Assembly (NCBI GenBank): GCA_965637545.1
Contig: OZ281496.1
Coordinates: forward strand, 16,368,001 to 16,432,000
DNA length: 64,000 nucleotides
Reading direction: 5' to 3'
Origin: Phallusia mammillata
Taxonomy: Eukaryota
Of this stretch, positions 53,878 through 64,000 are shown piece after piece. Both the position numbers and the translations under genes were made by a program. The notes below the pieces were generated by a model. The model saw only the letters and a list, made by a program, of their open reading frames with translations, had not been told where the DNA came from and searched no databases. Every line of letters begins with the position of its first letter. Position 1 is the first letter of the stretch.

Positions 53878-56795
53878 AGGTACCTGAAGGTATGTAGGCC
53901 CGGAAGGTAAAAAGGCCCATCACTTATATTTTTAAATATGGGAGGAAAAAACTTCCCGCTCTCATCCGATTTTAAACTTAATGCGAATTTACACCATGTG
54001 CGAAGTTTTAGCTTTGTTCGTTCTTTGTAAAAGTTGCTACGACCAATTAAAATCCTTACCCTGTTCGTTAGCGACTTTTTGTAATTTCAGAAAACTTCTG
54101 AAAGCAAATATTGACAGGTTTAGTTGTTGAAATGCAAATTTTGTCAAGATATACGTGAGATGGATCATTGTAGTTTGTGCAGAATATTGTTTGAGTTAGA
54201 AATAGAAACTGCTTCAGGATTAATTTGATAGGGTTTTGTATGTCAGCGACTGGTGGCAATAAAGCCCATTAAATTTTAGTGCCTAACATAGTTAAAGTGA
54301 ATGGCATGGATGCAAATAGTAAGATAAAACTATAATAAGCTTATGTATTAGGGTCTGTTGTATTTTCTTTACCAAACACAGTAGCCAGTAACATAGATTA
54401 ATATAATTCACTATTACAAAGTCAGAAAATAAGTAATTGAATTGCCAACTTTGCTAGTCAAAGTAGCGAAGTTATGTCATGATTTAGATTCAATTTTTTG
54501 TTGTGTAGCTGCAAATCTATGCATATTAGTCATAACGGCAAAGCGGCGAGCAGCATGGTCTGAAGCAAACCTTAAATTAGCTATGGGGGCAGTTGAAGGT
54601 GGATTAACACTGAGAAAGGCAGAGGAACTGTTTCAAATACCAAGGAGAACATTACGAAACCGCATTAAATCAAAAGTAACAGAAAAACGACTTGGGAGGC
54701 CACATACTTTGACAATGGAACAAGAGAAAGAACTATGCTTGAGAATAATAAGATACAGTGAGATTGGTTTGCCTGTCACAGCCAGTATAGTAAAAAGTTA
54801 TGTTTTTGAATTTTGTGAAAAAAATAACATTACAAGTCCTTTTAACAAAACAAAGCAGTCAGCTGGGCGCTATTGGTTTCAAAATTTTTTGAAACGACAC
54901 CCTGAATTATCTATCAGAAAAGCACAGTCAATGAATCCAGGAAGAGCAATTAAGCTAAACAAACATATTGTAGACGATTATTTCAAAAAGTTGAAAGTTG
55001 TTTTGGAAGACCATGACTTATTTGACAAACCTCGCTTTATTTATAACATGGATGAAAAAGGTTGCCGCCTCACATTGCACCATCAACAGGCAGTTTTGGC
55101 CCAGAAAGGTACCAAACGAGTGCATCCAGTTGCTCCTGAGCATGCTGAGAATGTGACTATTGTAGTTTCTGCAAATGCATCCGGAACTGCGATTCCACCA
55201 ATGATTATATACAAAGGAAAACGTTGCAAGCCTGAATATTGTGATGGATTACCACCTGATACACTAGTATGTATGTCTGATAAGGGAAGCATGACAACAG
55301 ACTTGTTTCTTAAGTGGATTGACCATTTTGCAAAGTTTAAAACAAGTGGAACCGTTCTTCTTATATTTGATGGTGCAACAAGCCACATTCACCATAGTAT
55401 TGTAGATGCTGCAGTAAGTAGAGATATTATACTTTTTTGTCTTCCAAGTAACACTACACATGAGCTTCAACCAATGGACAAATCTGTATTTCGCTCTTTT
55501 GAACATTACTGGGATCTGGAGGTTTTAAAATATTGGCGTGCTCACCCAGATCGATCAATAACAAAGACAAGGTTTGGATATATATGCACCCCTGCATATA
55601 ACAAAGCATTATCTATTGGCAACATTGTTAATGGTTTTAGAAGCACCGGAATTTATCCGTTTAACCCTGATGCCATTCCAGAAGTTGCCTTTGCACCTAG
55701 TTTGGTGACTATGGAGGAGGTGAACTCATCTGAAAGAACTGAACGAGAAGAGGTTTTCACAGAACTTCAATCAACTTCAGCAGCAGCTGAAGCATCACCG
55801 AACCCACAAAGTGCAATCTTTTGTCCTGAGATTTTTGATGCAACTGCAACAAGTACTCCAAGGAAAGGACAGGTTGAAGAAAGCAATTTAGTTGATGCTA
55901 TAGCTATAAATGACCGGGAAGACGATTCTTTACACAGATTTTCTGTCAGTTTTACTGAAATAATGGCAACCCCAAAAATTAGGAGAAAAAAAACTACACG
56001 CAAAAAAAGCCTCACTTACAAAGCTCAAGTCATGTCAAAGAATCTTTTTTCAGCCCATGACACAGCACCTTCTGCAAGAAGTAGTAAAGCCAAAAAAATA
56101 CATGAGAAAAAAAAGAAACAGAAACAACTACTGGCCAATAAGAAGACAAATGCTGGTAGAAATGCATCTTGGTTTTGCTCGGTATGTGAGGAAGACACTA
56201 CATTGAGTATGAGGCAATGCATGTCTTGCAAAGTTTGGTTCCATGAGGAATGTGTGGGATTGGAGTCCGATGATGAGGAAGACTTTATATGTATGGACTG
56301 TAATTAGCACTATAAAAGAGTGCCCAGTGTGTATTTGTTTCAGTGGGTTTATTTGTTTCAATATTTCGTTTAGTTTTATTGATGATTGAGTGTCATTTGT
56401 TGGTGGTGGTTTCACACCACCAATGGTTGGTGGTTTAATTCGTTGGTGGTGGTTTTAATTTATAAACTACATGTCCTAAAGTTTATTATGAAGCTTGTTA
56501 GAACTTTATTTTGAGAGAAGTAAAGTAGAAAGGGGTTTGATTAATTATATAACACTTAAAAAACACAAGAAAGTTTAGGGCCTTAATAAAAGCACAGGCA
56601 TGTATTAAGGCCCGATTTAAAAAAAAATTAAACAGTTATTCTGGGAAAACAAAACTTGGAAATTTTCCTAAAGTCGGACGGGTGATCAGTGTTAACCCTT
56701 ACAACCTTCATGCCAAATTTGGCCAGAAACTATTGAACTGTTTTTCAGTTACAGTCAAAAGTTTGCTTAATGGGCCTAGATACCTGCAGGTACCT
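53878..56795 (+). mobile_element. pogo-superfamily (Fot-like, DD35D) DNA transposon
   Basis: 24-bp TIRs aggtacctgaaggtatgtaggccc vs aggtacctgcaggtatctaggccc and a TA TSD. Removing the element restores Gypsy GLVNYYHRFLP. Confidence 0.93.
54442..56307 (+). CDS. Intact pogo-like transposase: HTH_psq + CENP-B HTH + DDE_1 (DD35D) + C-terminal PHD finger
   Basis: 621-codon open frame (true start probably spliced) with YNMDEKG, LLIFDG-35 aa-PMD and CSVC...CMSCKVWFHEECVG...CMDC. Confidence 0.9.
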   Translation: MPTLLVKVAKLCHDLDSIFCCVAANLCILVITAKRRAAWSEANLKLAMGAVEGGLTLRKAEELFQIPRRTLRNRIKSKVTEKRLGRPHTLTMEQEKELCLRIIRYSEIGLPVTASIVKSYVFEFCEKNNITSPFNKTKQSAGRYWFQNFLKRHPELSIRKAQSMNPGRAIKLNKHIVDDYFKKLKVVLEDHDLFDKPRFIYNMDEKGCRLTLHHQQAVLAQKGTKRVHPVAPEHAENVTIVVSANASGTAIPPMIIYKGKRCKPEYCDGLPPDTLVCMSDKGSMTTDLFLKWIDHFAKFKTSGTVLLIFDGATSHIHHSIVDAAVSRDIILFCLPSNTTHELQPMDKSVFRSFEHYWDLEVLKYWRAHPDRSITKTRFGYICTPAYNKALSIGNIVNGFRSTGIYPFNPDAIPEVAFAPSLVTMEEVNSSERTEREEVFTELQSTSAAAEASPNPQSAIFCPEIFDATATSTPRKGQVEESNLVDAIAINDREDDSLHRFSVSFTEIMATPKIRRKKTTRKKSLTYKAQVMSKNLFSAHDTAPSARSSKAKKIHEKKKKQKQLLANKKTNAGRNASWFCSVCEEDTTLSMRQCMSCKVWFHEECVGLESDDEEDFICMDCN

Positions 56796-58213: not shown

Positions 58214-58680
58214 TCTTTTTTTGCTTAGGGTTCATCTCATCATGAAAACATAGCTGAAGTTCTTGGACTTACACAATGGCATGGAGCAATGGGGATCGTA
58301 ATGAGACTTTTGAACTTTTTGAATGACTATATTCCGCTGGTATTATCTCTTGTACTTCGAATGGCACATGAAACATCAGACGGGGTTGCATACATTCACA
58401 ATTGTGTAATAGACAGACGCCTAATTCATGGAGATATGAAACCAGAAAACATTCTCCTCACAATTGGCCCAAATTTCAAGATTGCAGACCTAGGCTGTGC
58501 CAAGCTGGCCAATTTTTACTGGTTCAACTGCCAACCAAAACAATGACCCACAAGAAATGACATTGAGGGTGCACGGCCAAAGAAAGAGCAAGATGTGTTC
58601 AGTTGTTCTATTATTTTTTATGTAATGTTATGTCGCGATTTACCATATTCATCAGAAGTTCTTTTGGGAAATGATTCGAA
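58214..58680 (+). pseudogene. Protein kinase fragment (TKL/RIPK-like), intronless and disrupted
   Basis: RMAHETSDGVAYIH...LIHGDMKPENILL...FKIADLG (subdomains VIa-VII), flanked by stops and frameshifts. Confidence 0.7.
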
Positions 58681-58959: not shown

Positions 58960-60052
58960 TTCCTTGTGCCGAAAAGTCTCAAAGACGGAGGAAATAAAGT
59001 CCAAATATGCAATTTTATTTTGCCTGAGAAATGTTTCTGTTCACGTCCTGAAACCAGCTTGGACTTGCAAACATCCCTTTTAAGATGCCAAGATTGTGGC
59101 TGGAATGTATATTATTGTGTTTCAGGCTGGGAAGATGTGCATCACTTTCACATTAATTTAAAGCAATTTATCCGTACGCTTAGTCTCGAACAACACGTTT
59201 CCACTCATGGATTTTGCATGGCAATGTTGCATGAAAATACACCAGGAAATAATTGTTTGGTAAATGTACATCTATGGCAGAATTGAAAGGATAAAGTTTT
59301 AAGCTGTTTAAACTTAGCAGATAAAAGACCTTTCGAAGATTTTGCTAAATGAAGTCCTTGAATCTTGCAGACACCATGTCTATCAAATTCAAAACAACTT
59401 GCCCTCAATTTTACAAAATTTGGATGACAACGGGTCCCAATGTCCAGCTTGCAAAGGGGTAGTTGTTTTACCAAAAGATTAGCAAGTGGCATAGTTCATG
59501 ATAAGGAAATGTAATATGTTTAGGATCTAACATGTGACGATATGTATTGCTTTGATGGAAATTTTGGCTATGTAAGAAGGGCTGCTGGCAAAAGTAGTGC
59601 TTCTCCCCATCATTTTTCGTAATGAAGGGATGTGGATGCCTTTTTCAACAGCTATGCTAATGACACAGCATCAAAAACAGTAAAACCCAAATAAGAACAC
59701 ATAGTTATCTAATTCGTGAGTACATTTTGGTTTCGTGTAGACGTGTAGTGATATTAAAGCTGGATCCAAAATCCGCTATGTCAACAAAATAGCTAAACTT
59801 GATGTAAAAGGAATTTTTGGTGTATGTTGCAAGCATGCATATCCAAAATAGTTTGTTGATATGAAACACGGGGAAAGGTTAGTAACTGCTCTATAATCAT
59901 TTTGATGTTTTTTTTTAATAAATGCTAGCCTGTCAATGCGTTTAGGCTAGGTTAACCAGTTTTCTTTTTGAAAAAAAATATGGAACAAAACAAAAATGCG
60001 GACATAAAGATATTTTATGATATAGCATGTAAACTACAGGAACACATAAAGT
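58960..60052 (+). mobile_element. Spliced KDZ (Kyakuja-Dileera-Zisupton)-type transposase remnant with Cys cluster
   Basis: CFC..CQDC Cys cluster, GSQCPAC, FDGNFGYVRRAAG, CSDIKAG..LDVKGIFGVCCKH..MKHGER and FYDIACKLQEH across short GT-AG introns. Stop at 59849. Confidence 0.7.
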
Positions 60053-60459
60053 TATGTGTGCCAGAGATGGGTTTACCTTTTTCAACTACGAACTAGCTTA
60101 AACAAGATTTACACCAGACGCGTTCGACGGCAAGCGCAGACGGCGTATTTTTTTCGCTTCAAACGACTGACGGCAAAGTTAAATCAGATTTACTTGCAGA
60201 CTGGAGTGCTGTGCGCACTACTTGAAGACTGGAGTGCTGTGTGCAGAACCTTGTTGCAACATGACAATTTCGTAGTTTTAAATTAATTGCTTGAGGAAGG
60301 TTTATGTAATATTTACTTATGGTAAGGGTACAATTTGTCTTTCCCTGATATTTTTTTGAAATGTGTCGCAGAAAAGAATGATAGATATGATGAAAGGTAC
60401 AATAATGTTGGTTTTGTGTTGTAGACTTTTGTTAAAATAAACTTTTGCTAAAAAAACAA

Positions 60460-60785
60460 TTTAATTCAATGAAATGCTGATACAATTGGTGCAGGATTCT
60501 CCCTGTATATATGATTCTGGTAGCAGCCAGTACAAGGATCAGAAGCGGAAAGAAAATGTGTGGAGAAATATTGCTCAACAAACTGGCCAGACAGGTAAGA
60601 CTTGAAGCCTGGTAAATTATTTTTATCATGACATGATTATCATTGTTGTAGTTGAAACTTGCATAAAGCGCTGGAAGAGTTTGAGATAGAAAATGCACAC
60701 AAAGTGGTGGTGCTGCTGCAAATCTACCGGGGTGGGAGCACTATGAGGCTCTTAAATTTTTGCAAGATCATTTGAGACATAAAGT
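60460..60785 (+). pseudogene. MADF (Myb/SANT-like) domain gene fragment, two exons
   Basis: LIQLVQDSPCIYDS..YKDQKRKENVWRNIA | VETCIKRWKSLR*..WEHYEALKFL; intron 60595-60651. Confidence 0.7.
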
Positions 60786-61115
60786 GTGAGTGATTTTTAA
60801 AATAAATAGATTTTTTTAAAATGTGCTCTGTTAACAAACGTGGTTTCTTGGACTGTCGGCAACTTTCCCCAAAACCTTAAGTCCAATTATTGATTTTGCA
60901 CAAGATGGGACTACACCTGAAGATGGTATTTTTGTATTTGTTTGGTTTCAATCAATTCAACTTAACATATACCGCCTTATTTTTTGTTTTCATCGCGTGA
61001 AAAAAGCTGAAGAGCACAACGAAAAATGCACCATCACCACCGCCCTCGTTTGTTAGTGTTGCAATACATTGCGCAACGTGACGTAATTGCCTTTTTCTCT
61101 TTTTTTGTTATATAT

Positions 61116-62120
61116 ATGGACCTTACAAATTTGATCATTACTATGTTGGCACTTGCAGGTGAGGCAGCTTTTAATTACTTAGTAGACTCTGTTTTACTGT
61201 CTGAGGCAGCTGCCGTTGGGTTCGAGGAAGCTACCGCGGGCGCAATCAGCGCCGAAGACGTTGCAACTGTACAATCTGGAATTAGGACAGTACGATCTGC
61301 TGTTAATACCGCTAACACACTTTACGACGTAGGACGATCTGTACTTTCAATGAGCAAACGTGTACGCACCGACGTTGAAGAAGAACCAGAAGCAGATAAA
61401 AATCATGCTACCACAGGAGCGGAGAACGTTGTTAGCCTACATCATTCTCCATCGTCTGATTCAGTCGTTAGAAGATATTGGAAATAAGCGGCACATCAAT
61501 TTATTACATGGCGTAGGCTTGGAACTACTTCAATCATTAAATCCAATATCACAGCCCTCGGATGGACTTTGGATCCCGCAACCTTCGAGTCCAGTTTACC
61601 AAGCCTCACCTCCTTATTCGGAAACATAAAAATTTTGAAAATGTACTGGGAATGCTTTCCACTATGCATGACTGGTTCTGGAAATGATTTGGCTGCACTT
61701 GCTGGCACTAATCCGCAGTTGTGGTTAAGAATTGCAGACACTGTGCAGGAACCAACTTCTGGAATATTTCATATTGGCGAAGACAATCCCTCAACAGATG
61801 ATGACATGTTATTTTTCTCTAAATATACGGAAATGAACGCTGGTCGCGATAAATTTGTCATACCATTCGAACCAGTTGTTAGAAGAACCTTAGAAAGTGC
61901 TACTACTGCGTCTCACATCAGGACTACTACTCCTTATGAAACGTGGTTTGATTCACGAGATATAGCTAATGGTGGTGTATCTAGAAAAGTGTGTAGAGTG
62001 TACGTGAATACTCATAACTATGGTTTCGCTCCTGATGCCATACCAGAAGGTTTTACTGTCCAACTTAATTATGTTATGCATTGCCATGTACTACTACAAC
62101 ATTTACAAGCAGCATATTAA
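61116..62120 (+). pseudogene. Putative endogenous CRESS-DNA-virus-like single jelly-roll capsid gene (one in-frame stop)
   Basis: ORFs 61026-61487 and 61569-62120 are in the same frame and joined by an open linker after a single TAA (61485). Motifs SLFGNIKILKMYWECFP, IPFEP, PYETWFDS and NYVMHCHVLLQ, plus a basic SKRVRT patch. No introns. Confidence 0.55.
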
Positions 62121-62273
62121 TTACTACTTGTGTTTTTCAGGTATGATTTATTATAGAGGTACAATTTCTGACGTTTATCGTTATTTATCATTATTTGCAA
62201 GTAACAATGAATCTGAATCCCAATTCGCAAGACTGGTTCGCACCATTGTTATCGCCGGAACAATCAGAGAAAA

Positions 62274-64000
62274 CCCAGCAGGCACTCGACGTCTTTTTCA
62301 CGTATGTTTTTTAGTTGATTTTAGGTCGAGACGTCAAATCAACGTCATCTATCAAAATGTTCCATATTTCGACGGGAAAAAAACGTTGAGAAATGGTTTA
62401 AATCCCAACGTACATTTCATTAACGTTTTTTAAACGTCGTATGGACGTCGATTACCTAACGTTGAATTTAGGTCATTACTTTAACGTGCAATTAACGTTG
62501 AATTAAAGTAAAAAGCTGGACGTAGAATTAAAGTCTTTACTTCAACGTCTAAATAACGTTGAATTAAAGTAAAAAGCTAGACGTAGAATTAAAGTCTTTA
62601 CTTCAACGACTAAATAACGTTGAATTGATGTAAAAAGCTGGACGTAGAATTAAAGTCTTTACTTCAACGTCTAAATCACGTTGAATTGATGTAAAAAGCT
62701 GGACGTAGAATTAAAGTCTTTACTTCAACGACTAAAGAACGTTGAATTGATGTAAAAAGCTGGACGTAGAATTAAAGTCTTTACTTCAACGACTAAATAA
62801 CGTTGAATTGAAGTAAAAAGCTAGACGTAGAATTAAAGTCTTTACTTCAACGACTAAATAACGTTGAATTGAAGTAAAAAGCTGGACGTAGAATTAAAGT
62901 CTTTACTTCAACGTCTAAATAACGTTGAAATGAAGTAAAAAGCTGGACGTAGAATTAAAGTCTTTACTTCAACGACTAAAGAACGTTGAATTGATGTAAA
63001 AAGCTGGACGTAGAATTAAAGTCTTTACTTCAACGTTTAAATAACATTGAAATGAAGTAAAAAACCAGACGTAGAATTAAAGTCTTTGCTTCAACGTCTA
63101 AATAACGTTGAAAAAAAATAAAAAATTAGACGTGAAAATAAAGTCTTTACTTCAACGTCTAAATACCGTTGAAATGAAGTAAAAAACTAGACGTAGAATT
63201 AAAGTCTTTGCTTCAACGTCTAAATAACGTTGAAAAAAAATAAAAAATTAGACGTGAAAATAAAGTCTTTACTTCAACGTCTAAATACCGTTGAAATGAA
63301 GTAAAAAACCAGACGTAGAATTAAAGTCTTTACTTCAACGTTTAAATAACGTTGAAATGAAGTAAAAAAACAGACGTAGAATTAAAGTCTTTACTTCAAC
63401 GTTTAAATAACGTTGAAATGAAGTAAAAAATTAGACGTGAAAATAAAGTCTTTACTTCAACGTCTAAATAACGTTAAATTAAAGCAAAACATTAGACGTA
63501 GAATTGTAGTCTTTACTTCAACGACTAGATAACGTTGAATTGAAGTAAAAAGCTGGACGTAGAATTAGAGTCTTTACTTCAACGTCTAAATAACGTTGAA
63601 AAAAAATAAAAAATTAGACGTGAAAATAAAGTCTTTACTTCAACGTCTAAATACCGTTGAATTGAAGTAAAAAACCAGACGTAGAATTAAAGTCTTTACT
63701 TCAACGTTTAAATAACGTTGAAATGAAGTAAAAAATTAGACGTGAAAATAAAGTCTTTACTTCAACGTCTAAATAACGTTGAATTAAAGTAAAAAACTGG
63801 ACGCAGAATTAAAGGCTTTACTTCAACGTCTGTCGTTACTTCAACGTCTGAATAACGATAAATTAAAGTAGAAAAACTGGACATTGAAATAAAGTTTCAC
63901 TACATTTTATGACATAAAATAGAGCTCAAAACAGTCGGAGAATTAAAGTTGGCATGTAATAATATAGATTACGTACGTTCTAACTCAAACGTACAAGAAC
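62274..64000 (+). mobile_element. CMC/EnSpm-like element left end, extending beyond the window
   Basis: cccagcaggcactcgacgtc terminus followed by acgt-rich subterminal sequence and the tandem array. No right TIR in the window. Confidence 0.5.
62490..63850. repeat. 61-62-bp tandem array (~22 units), each with an internal dyad
   Basis: Unit gacgtagaattaaagtctttacttcaacgtctaaataacgttgaattgaagtaaaaagctg; period 61 (e.g. 62641 to 62702). Contains ttcaacgt-N7-acgttgaa. Confidence 0.97.

Follow-up and report, generated by a model that had tools for sequence, protein, structure and literature searches.

A broken capsid-like gene in Phallusia mammillata, likely a dead endogenous fragment of a probably undescribed lineage of ssDNA viruses

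The open frame at 61116-62120 in the window (the whole 64,000-nucleotide stretch analysed here, C3:16368001-16432000 of a 240-Mb assembly) is best read as a broken capsid gene. It would belong to the left 1.39 kb of a small ssDNA virus, inserted into a host repeat; the genome of this virus would have been linear with hairpin ends, its genes running from the capsid through a small ORF to Rep on one strand. We put the probability of this reading at roughly 0.8. We hold with little doubt the narrower claim that the locus is an endogenous fragment of the Rep family described below, and the virus lineage from which this dead fragment stems is probably undescribed. The features concerned are the following.

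60139-60972, no strand assigned: left flank, a host repeat that is present virus-free at C6:13.71 Mb (the empty site, L009); its last four bases, ATAC, recur at the right junction.
60972-61037, plus strand: leftmost 66 bases of the viral insertion, a candidate inverted terminal sequence; an inverted copy (82%) lies after Rep in the same-lineage copy at C6:22.94 Mb.
61116-62120, plus strand: likely capsid gene of 334 codons, with an Ala/Gly-rich N-terminus without PLA2, a basic patch and a putative jelly-roll part.
61485-61487, plus strand: internal TAA at codon 124, also in the duplicate at C3:16.09 Mb and spanned by no independent copy.
62143-62273, plus strand: 5' portion of ORF3, a small frame in which 44 codons compared with the C6 copy show 59% identity.
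62207-62273, plus strand: start of the Rep gene, in the +1 frame relative to ORF3; it resumes beyond the window at L022:5229-5317 (C3:16437229-16437317).
62274-64000, no strand assigned: left part of a 6.95-kb DNA transposon inside ORF3/Rep, with ends CCCAGC..GGCAC and AA duplicated.

The other long frames of the window are mostly transposon remnants, including a DDE_1 transposase set into a retroelement RT/RNase H, and a LINE. An open 624-codon pogo-like transposase (HTH_psq, HTH_Tnp_Tc5 and DDE_1, with a C-terminal PHD finger) occupies 54433-56307 inside a retroelement pol gene; a lone protein-kinase fragment (Pkinase, E = 6e-11) lies amid transposon remnants at 58229-58546; and a spliced remnant at 59500-60150 has motifs of what we take to be a KDZ (Kyakuja-Dileera-Zisupton) transposase.

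On translation, the capsid-like frame contains one internal and one final TAA, as the initial annotation had described it, and all of the motifs quoted there are present; the opposite strand is full of stops. Relatives of the gene occur at three further places in the genome (57%, 69% and 96-98% protein identity), and dN/dS with respect to the two divergent ones is 0.16 and 0.10, so the frame is not a chance one. Obtained at a dS of about 2.4-2.5, near saturation, these values mean that the gene and its two divergent copies diverged while they were working genes. The nearest relative belongs to a segmental duplication at C3:16.09 Mb, 0.33 Mb from the window, which holds a 96-98% copy of the capsid gene with the same TAA. 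The TAA is therefore not an assembly error, and none of four public runs has another letter at this position (contigs, which may represent the duplicate). Extra damage in the duplicate comprises a 42-nt deletion, a frameshift and a retroelement insertion; a GIY-YIG/RT (Penelope-like) element splits its capsid gene (L020 9647 to L021 3064). Two contigs of run X9, RNA by guess only, cover 61319-61672 and say nothing on transcription. The read-through protein found no match among 8000 candidates in a protein database search, and Pfam recognises no domain in it, including the Ala/Gly-rich N-terminus that the initial annotation tentatively likened to polyomavirus VP2.

The viral insertion measures 1.39 kb, with ATAC duplicated, both junctions defined and an empty site found. 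At the empty site, L009:895-1774 matches the left flank and 1771-2925 matches the right flank from L022:5318 on, and the junction without the virus is also read in public run X5, from a loose end at 60972. The 66-base left end was found in a genome search only here, in the C3 duplicate and at the C6:22.94 Mb copy. Inside the insertion, the capsid-like gene is followed by the small ORF3 and the start of an HUH Rep, the latter beginning at 62207, 87 bases past the stop of the capsid frame. The initial annotation had seen no Rep, which was wrong, and its suggestion that the gene was mobilised without one has no support, because the insertion holds the 5' part of Rep. The resumed piece is 89 bases long and runs through motif I (RNWAFT) to the right insertion junction; as far as the junctions show, the viral piece at this site never held the remainder of Rep. 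Just before the start of ORF3 at 62143 stands a pyrimidine-rich stretch ending in CAG, which looks like a splice acceptor; acceptor-like context occurs in this place in 3 of 3 copies of the window lineage and in 0 of 3 other copies compared.

The transposon that splits Rep (62274-64000 plus L022 1-5226), presumably EnSpm/CMC-like from its features, contains a 61-bp satellite (62459-63831) and a DUF4218 match that falls below the cut-off (E = 0.0018). Because public run X2 reads Rep/ORF3 straight through, without the 6.95-kb element, the latter may be polymorphic. With the capsid gene interrupted and Rep cut after about 50 codons, the locus is dead as a virus. As in an endogenous viral element, virus-type genes are joined here to host DNA at a definable empty site, and decay after insertion (stop, transposon, retroelement) followed on purifying selection before it (dN/dS 0.10-0.16).

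Nor is a lone capture supported, the locus being one among dozens of copies from several virus lineages. A same-lineage Rep query hits 38 genomic places, out of 45 candidates, and a helicase query has at least 66 matches, at no fewer than about 49 loci of the 240-Mb assembly. Three patches contain 61 of the 66: the one on C3 has 51, and the two on C6 together have 10. These patches (C3:11.8-17.8 Mb, C6:6.6-7.1 and 22.7-23.3 Mb) are transposon-dense, make up about 7 Mb of the 240 Mb, and could be piRNA-cluster-like or heterochromatic. Many of the Rep frames are open for 570-620 codons. Characteristic motifs of the family are RxWAFT, HxHG, YxxYMYK, GxxGxGKT, KIDDA, ITTN and RRF, and the family carries HUH motifs I-III, Walker A and B, motif C and an arginine finger. 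RCR motifs I-III and SF3 motifs are present, as in Cressdnaviricota/Circoviridae; the parvoviral combination of HUH endonuclease and SF3 helicase is present in the Reps of relatives (including relative P0002), and the helicase is absent from copies of the window lineage. The only longer Rep of that lineage, in the C6 copy L017, has 256 codons and ends before the helicase. Endonuclease-only Rep frames (L017 1012-1779; L080 4324-4965; L082 3252-3995 and 5948-7060) may be truncations or satellite-like elements.

Pfam has no match for the Rep or ORF3 of the window lineage, and none of 27 Reps matches Parvo_NS1 or Viral_Rep at E≤1 among the Pfam families listed; one distant hit has E = 0.073. Values of dN/dS range from 0.04 to 0.37 over 15 lineage-A pairs, compared with 0.10-0.16 in the window lineage. 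In a quick Rep tree, which carries long-branch warnings that extend to the window lineage, the four lineages of this genome stand apart from each other among foreign sequences, a scatter pointing to repeated, independent entry of the viruses. Lineage B has an ORF3-like part in frame with Rep. At L060 3061-9404, two different viral copies lie tail to tail, and at L068 2582-7272 they lie in tandem. The C6 copy adjoins an open 2028-codon frame of a Pao/BEL retrotransposon (L016 2420-8503); at L017 1-915, the C-terminus of a hAT transposase is in frame with the second half of the capsid, a 333-codon chimera that we rejected as probably a chance junction at a transposon end.

The order cap, small ORF3, Rep on one strand was found in 23 of 24 informative loci of this genome (37 examined) and in 21 of 21 metagenome loci, out of 23 examined, some of which are re-assemblies of others in the set. 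Some of the 23 loci from the metagenome scan adjoin piggyBac-like and Pao elements, so these are likely to be endogenous too; five IMG/VR scans yielded no relative and no free virus. A Rep profile search gave 94 representatives at E≤0.001, some of the weakest being repeat-protein noise, and 55 at E≤1e-10 (counted after 50% clustering). Among the 20 Rep relatives looked up, just two are named. One is called “hypothetical protein”; the other comes from the ascidian Styela clava (LOC120344078, XP_039269095.1, “uncharacterized protein”), belongs to the same Rep family (E = 1.8e-66) and is not annotated as viral. For relative P0002, the best ten Atlas rows score 0.94-0.95; eight are with Rep/SF3 families, one is with Parvo_NS1 and one is without a common family. 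A PDB sequence search with the Rep profile returned repeat-protein and generic ATPase noise only.

The capsids of the family are more varied. A parvoviral PLA2 (PF08398) is found at the capsid N-terminus in lineage A and in one metagenome lineage (E = 3.9e-11 and 5.6e-7), and is absent from the three other capsids tested (lineage B, a second metagenome lineage and the 61116-62120 protein). The lineage-A capsid core (about 210-280 aa), modelled from 16 sequences, is beta-rich, with a pLDDT of 51.5, which is low confidence. Its best match is a bat circovirus capsid (Z 7.0; rmsd 4.6 over 159 aligned residues), with BFDV at Z 6.8 and parvovirus capsids at Z 5.4-5.5, all of these being middling scores (under 8). 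Single jelly-roll capsids were matched in the two other structure searches too: in BFVD, with circovirus and CRESS capsids among the matches, 26 of the best 50 rows bear names and 24 of these are capsids, and in the PDB the matches include picornavirus and circovirus capsids; a PDB sequence search with two capsid profiles gave 0 matches. According to this low-confidence model, the lineage-A capsid would be a compact jelly roll, closest to those of circoviruses.

For the genome ends, the main evidence comes from the metagenome loci. A palindrome lies 3' of Rep in 12 of 21 of these, 10 of the palindromes being 119-279 nt long, and several of the other nine loci end too soon. The hairpin of L100 has a value of -119.6 kcal/mol (z = -30). 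Among five aligned metagenome hairpins, with tips of TTT or AAA, an asymmetric bubble occurs in both orientations (2 vs 3); such flip and flop forms are the signature of hairpin transfer in rolling-hairpin replication. In addition, a 27-36-nt motif is inverted at the two ends of metagenome elements. The 34 end regions of own-genome copies (19 downstream and 15 upstream) contain no long palindrome, so the evidence for linear ends comes from two metagenome lineages only. In lineage A, a short AGTACC hairpin module stands upstream of cap, upstream of ORF3 and again downstream of Rep, in most cases followed by a TATA-like stretch (sites at L059 4296-4351, L056 5773-5828, L077 7417-7488 and L060 6453); in two of three lineage-A occurrences the module begins exactly at the TAG stop of a gene. 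These modules are possibly Rep-binding promoter elements.

An origin had been reported as lacking, and indeed no NANTANTAC lies in a stem-loop within the viral stretch. Nonamers do occur in hairpin stems: TACTATTAC in the long-hairpin stems of L094, L096, L098, L100, L102, L103, L109 and L110, with none in L091, and the circovirus-type TAGTATTAC in the long end-hairpin stems of two loci (L100 2602-2875 and L103 3656-3836), all of them in AT-rich repeat, where chance may account for them.

These observations bear on the strongest alternative, that the family consists of CRESS-DNA viruses whose genomes are circular and encode both genes on the same strand, and that the cap-first appearance arises from breaks at an origin between Rep and cap. 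We consider this unlikely. In its favour, motif I of the Rep is CRESS-like and its Walker B has DD, in contrast to parvoviruses, and the clusters closest to it in the Atlas consist of plasmid and CRESS Reps; yet over 34 regions 0 of 89 NANTANTAC matches fall in a loop closed by a stem of at least 7, and the hairpin bubble is also found inverted. Cap sequence does follow Rep and the hairpin in L100, L096, L105 and L111, but these Rep-to-cap joins begin inside cap, without the upstream region, as in rearranged concatemers, and no native Rep-to-cap junction was seen in the loci examined, all integrated copies. The modelled capsid fold is nearest to circoviruses, and a survey of circular DNA lists a PLA2-labelled cluster among circular elements (PMC7000223); against a circle, the downstream and upstream regions of own-genome copies have in common only a 42-45-nt module.

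The identity of the 61116-62120 protein itself was approached through the other capsids. Local profile comparison with them was not significant (E 0.07-0.48), and a single-sequence AlphaFold model of the downstream frame has a pLDDT of 32. The protein was outscored by 3 of 3000 shuffles with the family HMM, and in global profile alignment it was below or level with 3 of 300 (its N-terminal half misplaced by eye), so that overall its similarity to the capsid profiles has a p of about 0.001-0.01. A search of longer proteins with the merged capsid alignment found none, which is weak evidence. That it might be no capsid, and instead an unrelated replacement gene, or a version domesticated by the host, with the TAA either read through or separating two proteins, seems to us very improbable: the missing local match, PLA2, database relative and independent copy across the TAA would all suit such a gene, but it has the position and strand of the capsids, its C-terminal half is collinear with theirs in the alignment, and the duplicate is damaged further (42-nt deletion, frameshift, retroelement), as decay predicts. 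The protein is thus likely a capsid, by position and weak similarity. The original proposal of a circovirus-like jelly-roll capsid from an uncharacterised ssDNA virus thus gains indirect support, from the cap-ORF3-Rep position, the modelled fold of a relative's capsid and the weak profile similarity; in this protein itself the jelly roll is putative.

There is scarcely any case for a capsid-bearing rolling-circle transposon spreading within this genome, as about 49 loci, many with open 570-620-codon Rep frames, and the recurrence of the lineage-A hairpin module would suggest, given that copies end at differing points in unrelated flanks, that many copies differ from one another almost to saturation at synonymous sites but have conserved proteins, that identical copies (L069, L070 and L090) have flanks in common and are therefore duplications, and that the copy in the window is incomplete, breaking off within Rep. 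Poly(A) retroposition, considered for the A-rich right ends, was dropped because the interrupted A-tract pattern is common to the copies.

For a linear, hairpin-ended virus, the following course may be proposed. Rep would nick near the hairpin and copy it, the hairpin inverting in the process (rolling-hairpin replication). ORF3 and Rep would be expressed either from a second promoter or through splicing that skips the capsid gene. The 61116-62120 protein would fold as a jelly roll like its positional counterparts, in a capsid that may be T=1; capsids with PLA2 would leave the endosome by means of it, and the window lineage would use its Ala/Gly-rich N-terminus instead. Fragments would have entered the germ line by DNA break repair, many independent times, accumulated or survived in the transposon-dense patches, and then decayed.

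None of the known groups accommodates these elements fully. The small ORF that overlaps the Rep start resembles densoviral NS2. In monosense parvoviruses the NS cassette is upstream of VP, an order absent here, where the capsid gene is upstream of Rep on the same strand (cap first in 23/24 and 21/21 loci). Likenesses to Parvoviridae are an HUH+SF3 Rep, a putative jelly-roll capsid that in some cases carries PLA2 at its N-terminus, imperfect palindromes at the ends and a size of 4-6 kb, all listed as parvovirus features in PMC13426907. Parvoviruses are assigned to the family by an SF3 domain that groups with parvoviral NS1; most have a PLA2 in the VP1 N-terminus, and their jelly rolls have large loops between the strands. 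The differences, besides gene order, are that Rep keeps motif I, that Parvo_NS1 matches 0/27 Reps, and that the modelled lineage-A core is compact (about 210-280 aa) and nearer to circovirus (Z 7.0) than to parvovirus capsids (Z 5.4-5.5). Although the family is parvovirus-like in its proposed workings, we do not file it under Parvoviridae, because it lacks the NS-first order of monosense parvoviruses and shows no NS1 profile match. With Cressdnaviricota it shares Rep motifs I-III, Walker A/B, motif C and the arginine finger (as defined in PMC6668415) and a predicted compact single jelly roll; it differs in having no nonanucleotide stem-loop, long end hairpins in two orientations, PLA2 fused to the capsid, no Viral_Rep match, and a Rep that is 540-690 aa long and has an extended acidic tail. 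Despite the CRESS-like proteins, we do not place it there, since the origin test fails. Bidnaviridae are similar in being linear ssDNA viruses with parvovirus-like parts arranged otherwise, but they have the HUH domain replaced by a protein-primed polymerase (according to PMC6668415 and PMC13595969), whereas our family has HUH fused to SF3 and shows no ORF for a polymerase in the loci that we read.

We give even odds to the broader proposal that the elements belong to an undescribed family of ssDNA viruses of marine invertebrates, intermediate between CRESS-DNA viruses and parvoviruses, with a CRESS-type Rep, a circovirus-type capsid, a linear flip/flop hairpin genome, PLA2, a capsid-first order and TA(C/G)TATTAC stem nonamers as possible nick sites. 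In the openly accessible literature that we searched, no virus with cap-first order, hairpin ends and CRESS-like proteins was found, nor any described intermediate between CRESS-DNA viruses and parvoviruses. Parvovirus-related sequences are reported for one tunicate in PMC5013282, and these, or the PLA2 cluster of PMC7000223, could overlap with this family.

Alone, the 61116-62120 gene is a dead fragment only. The Rep family to which its locus belongs is broad, almost unnamed and missed by Pfam, so that surveys for viruses would pass it by. With dozens of insertions, derived from four or more lineages, within a few megabases, these viruses are tied to an animal host, and the Rep-rich patches make a case for asking about a role in small-RNA memory. 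Parvoviruses have been proposed as descendants of circular CRESS-DNA viruses (PMC6668415); a lineage that combines CRESS-like proteins with parvovirus-like ends would, if true, make the step from circle to linear genome testable.
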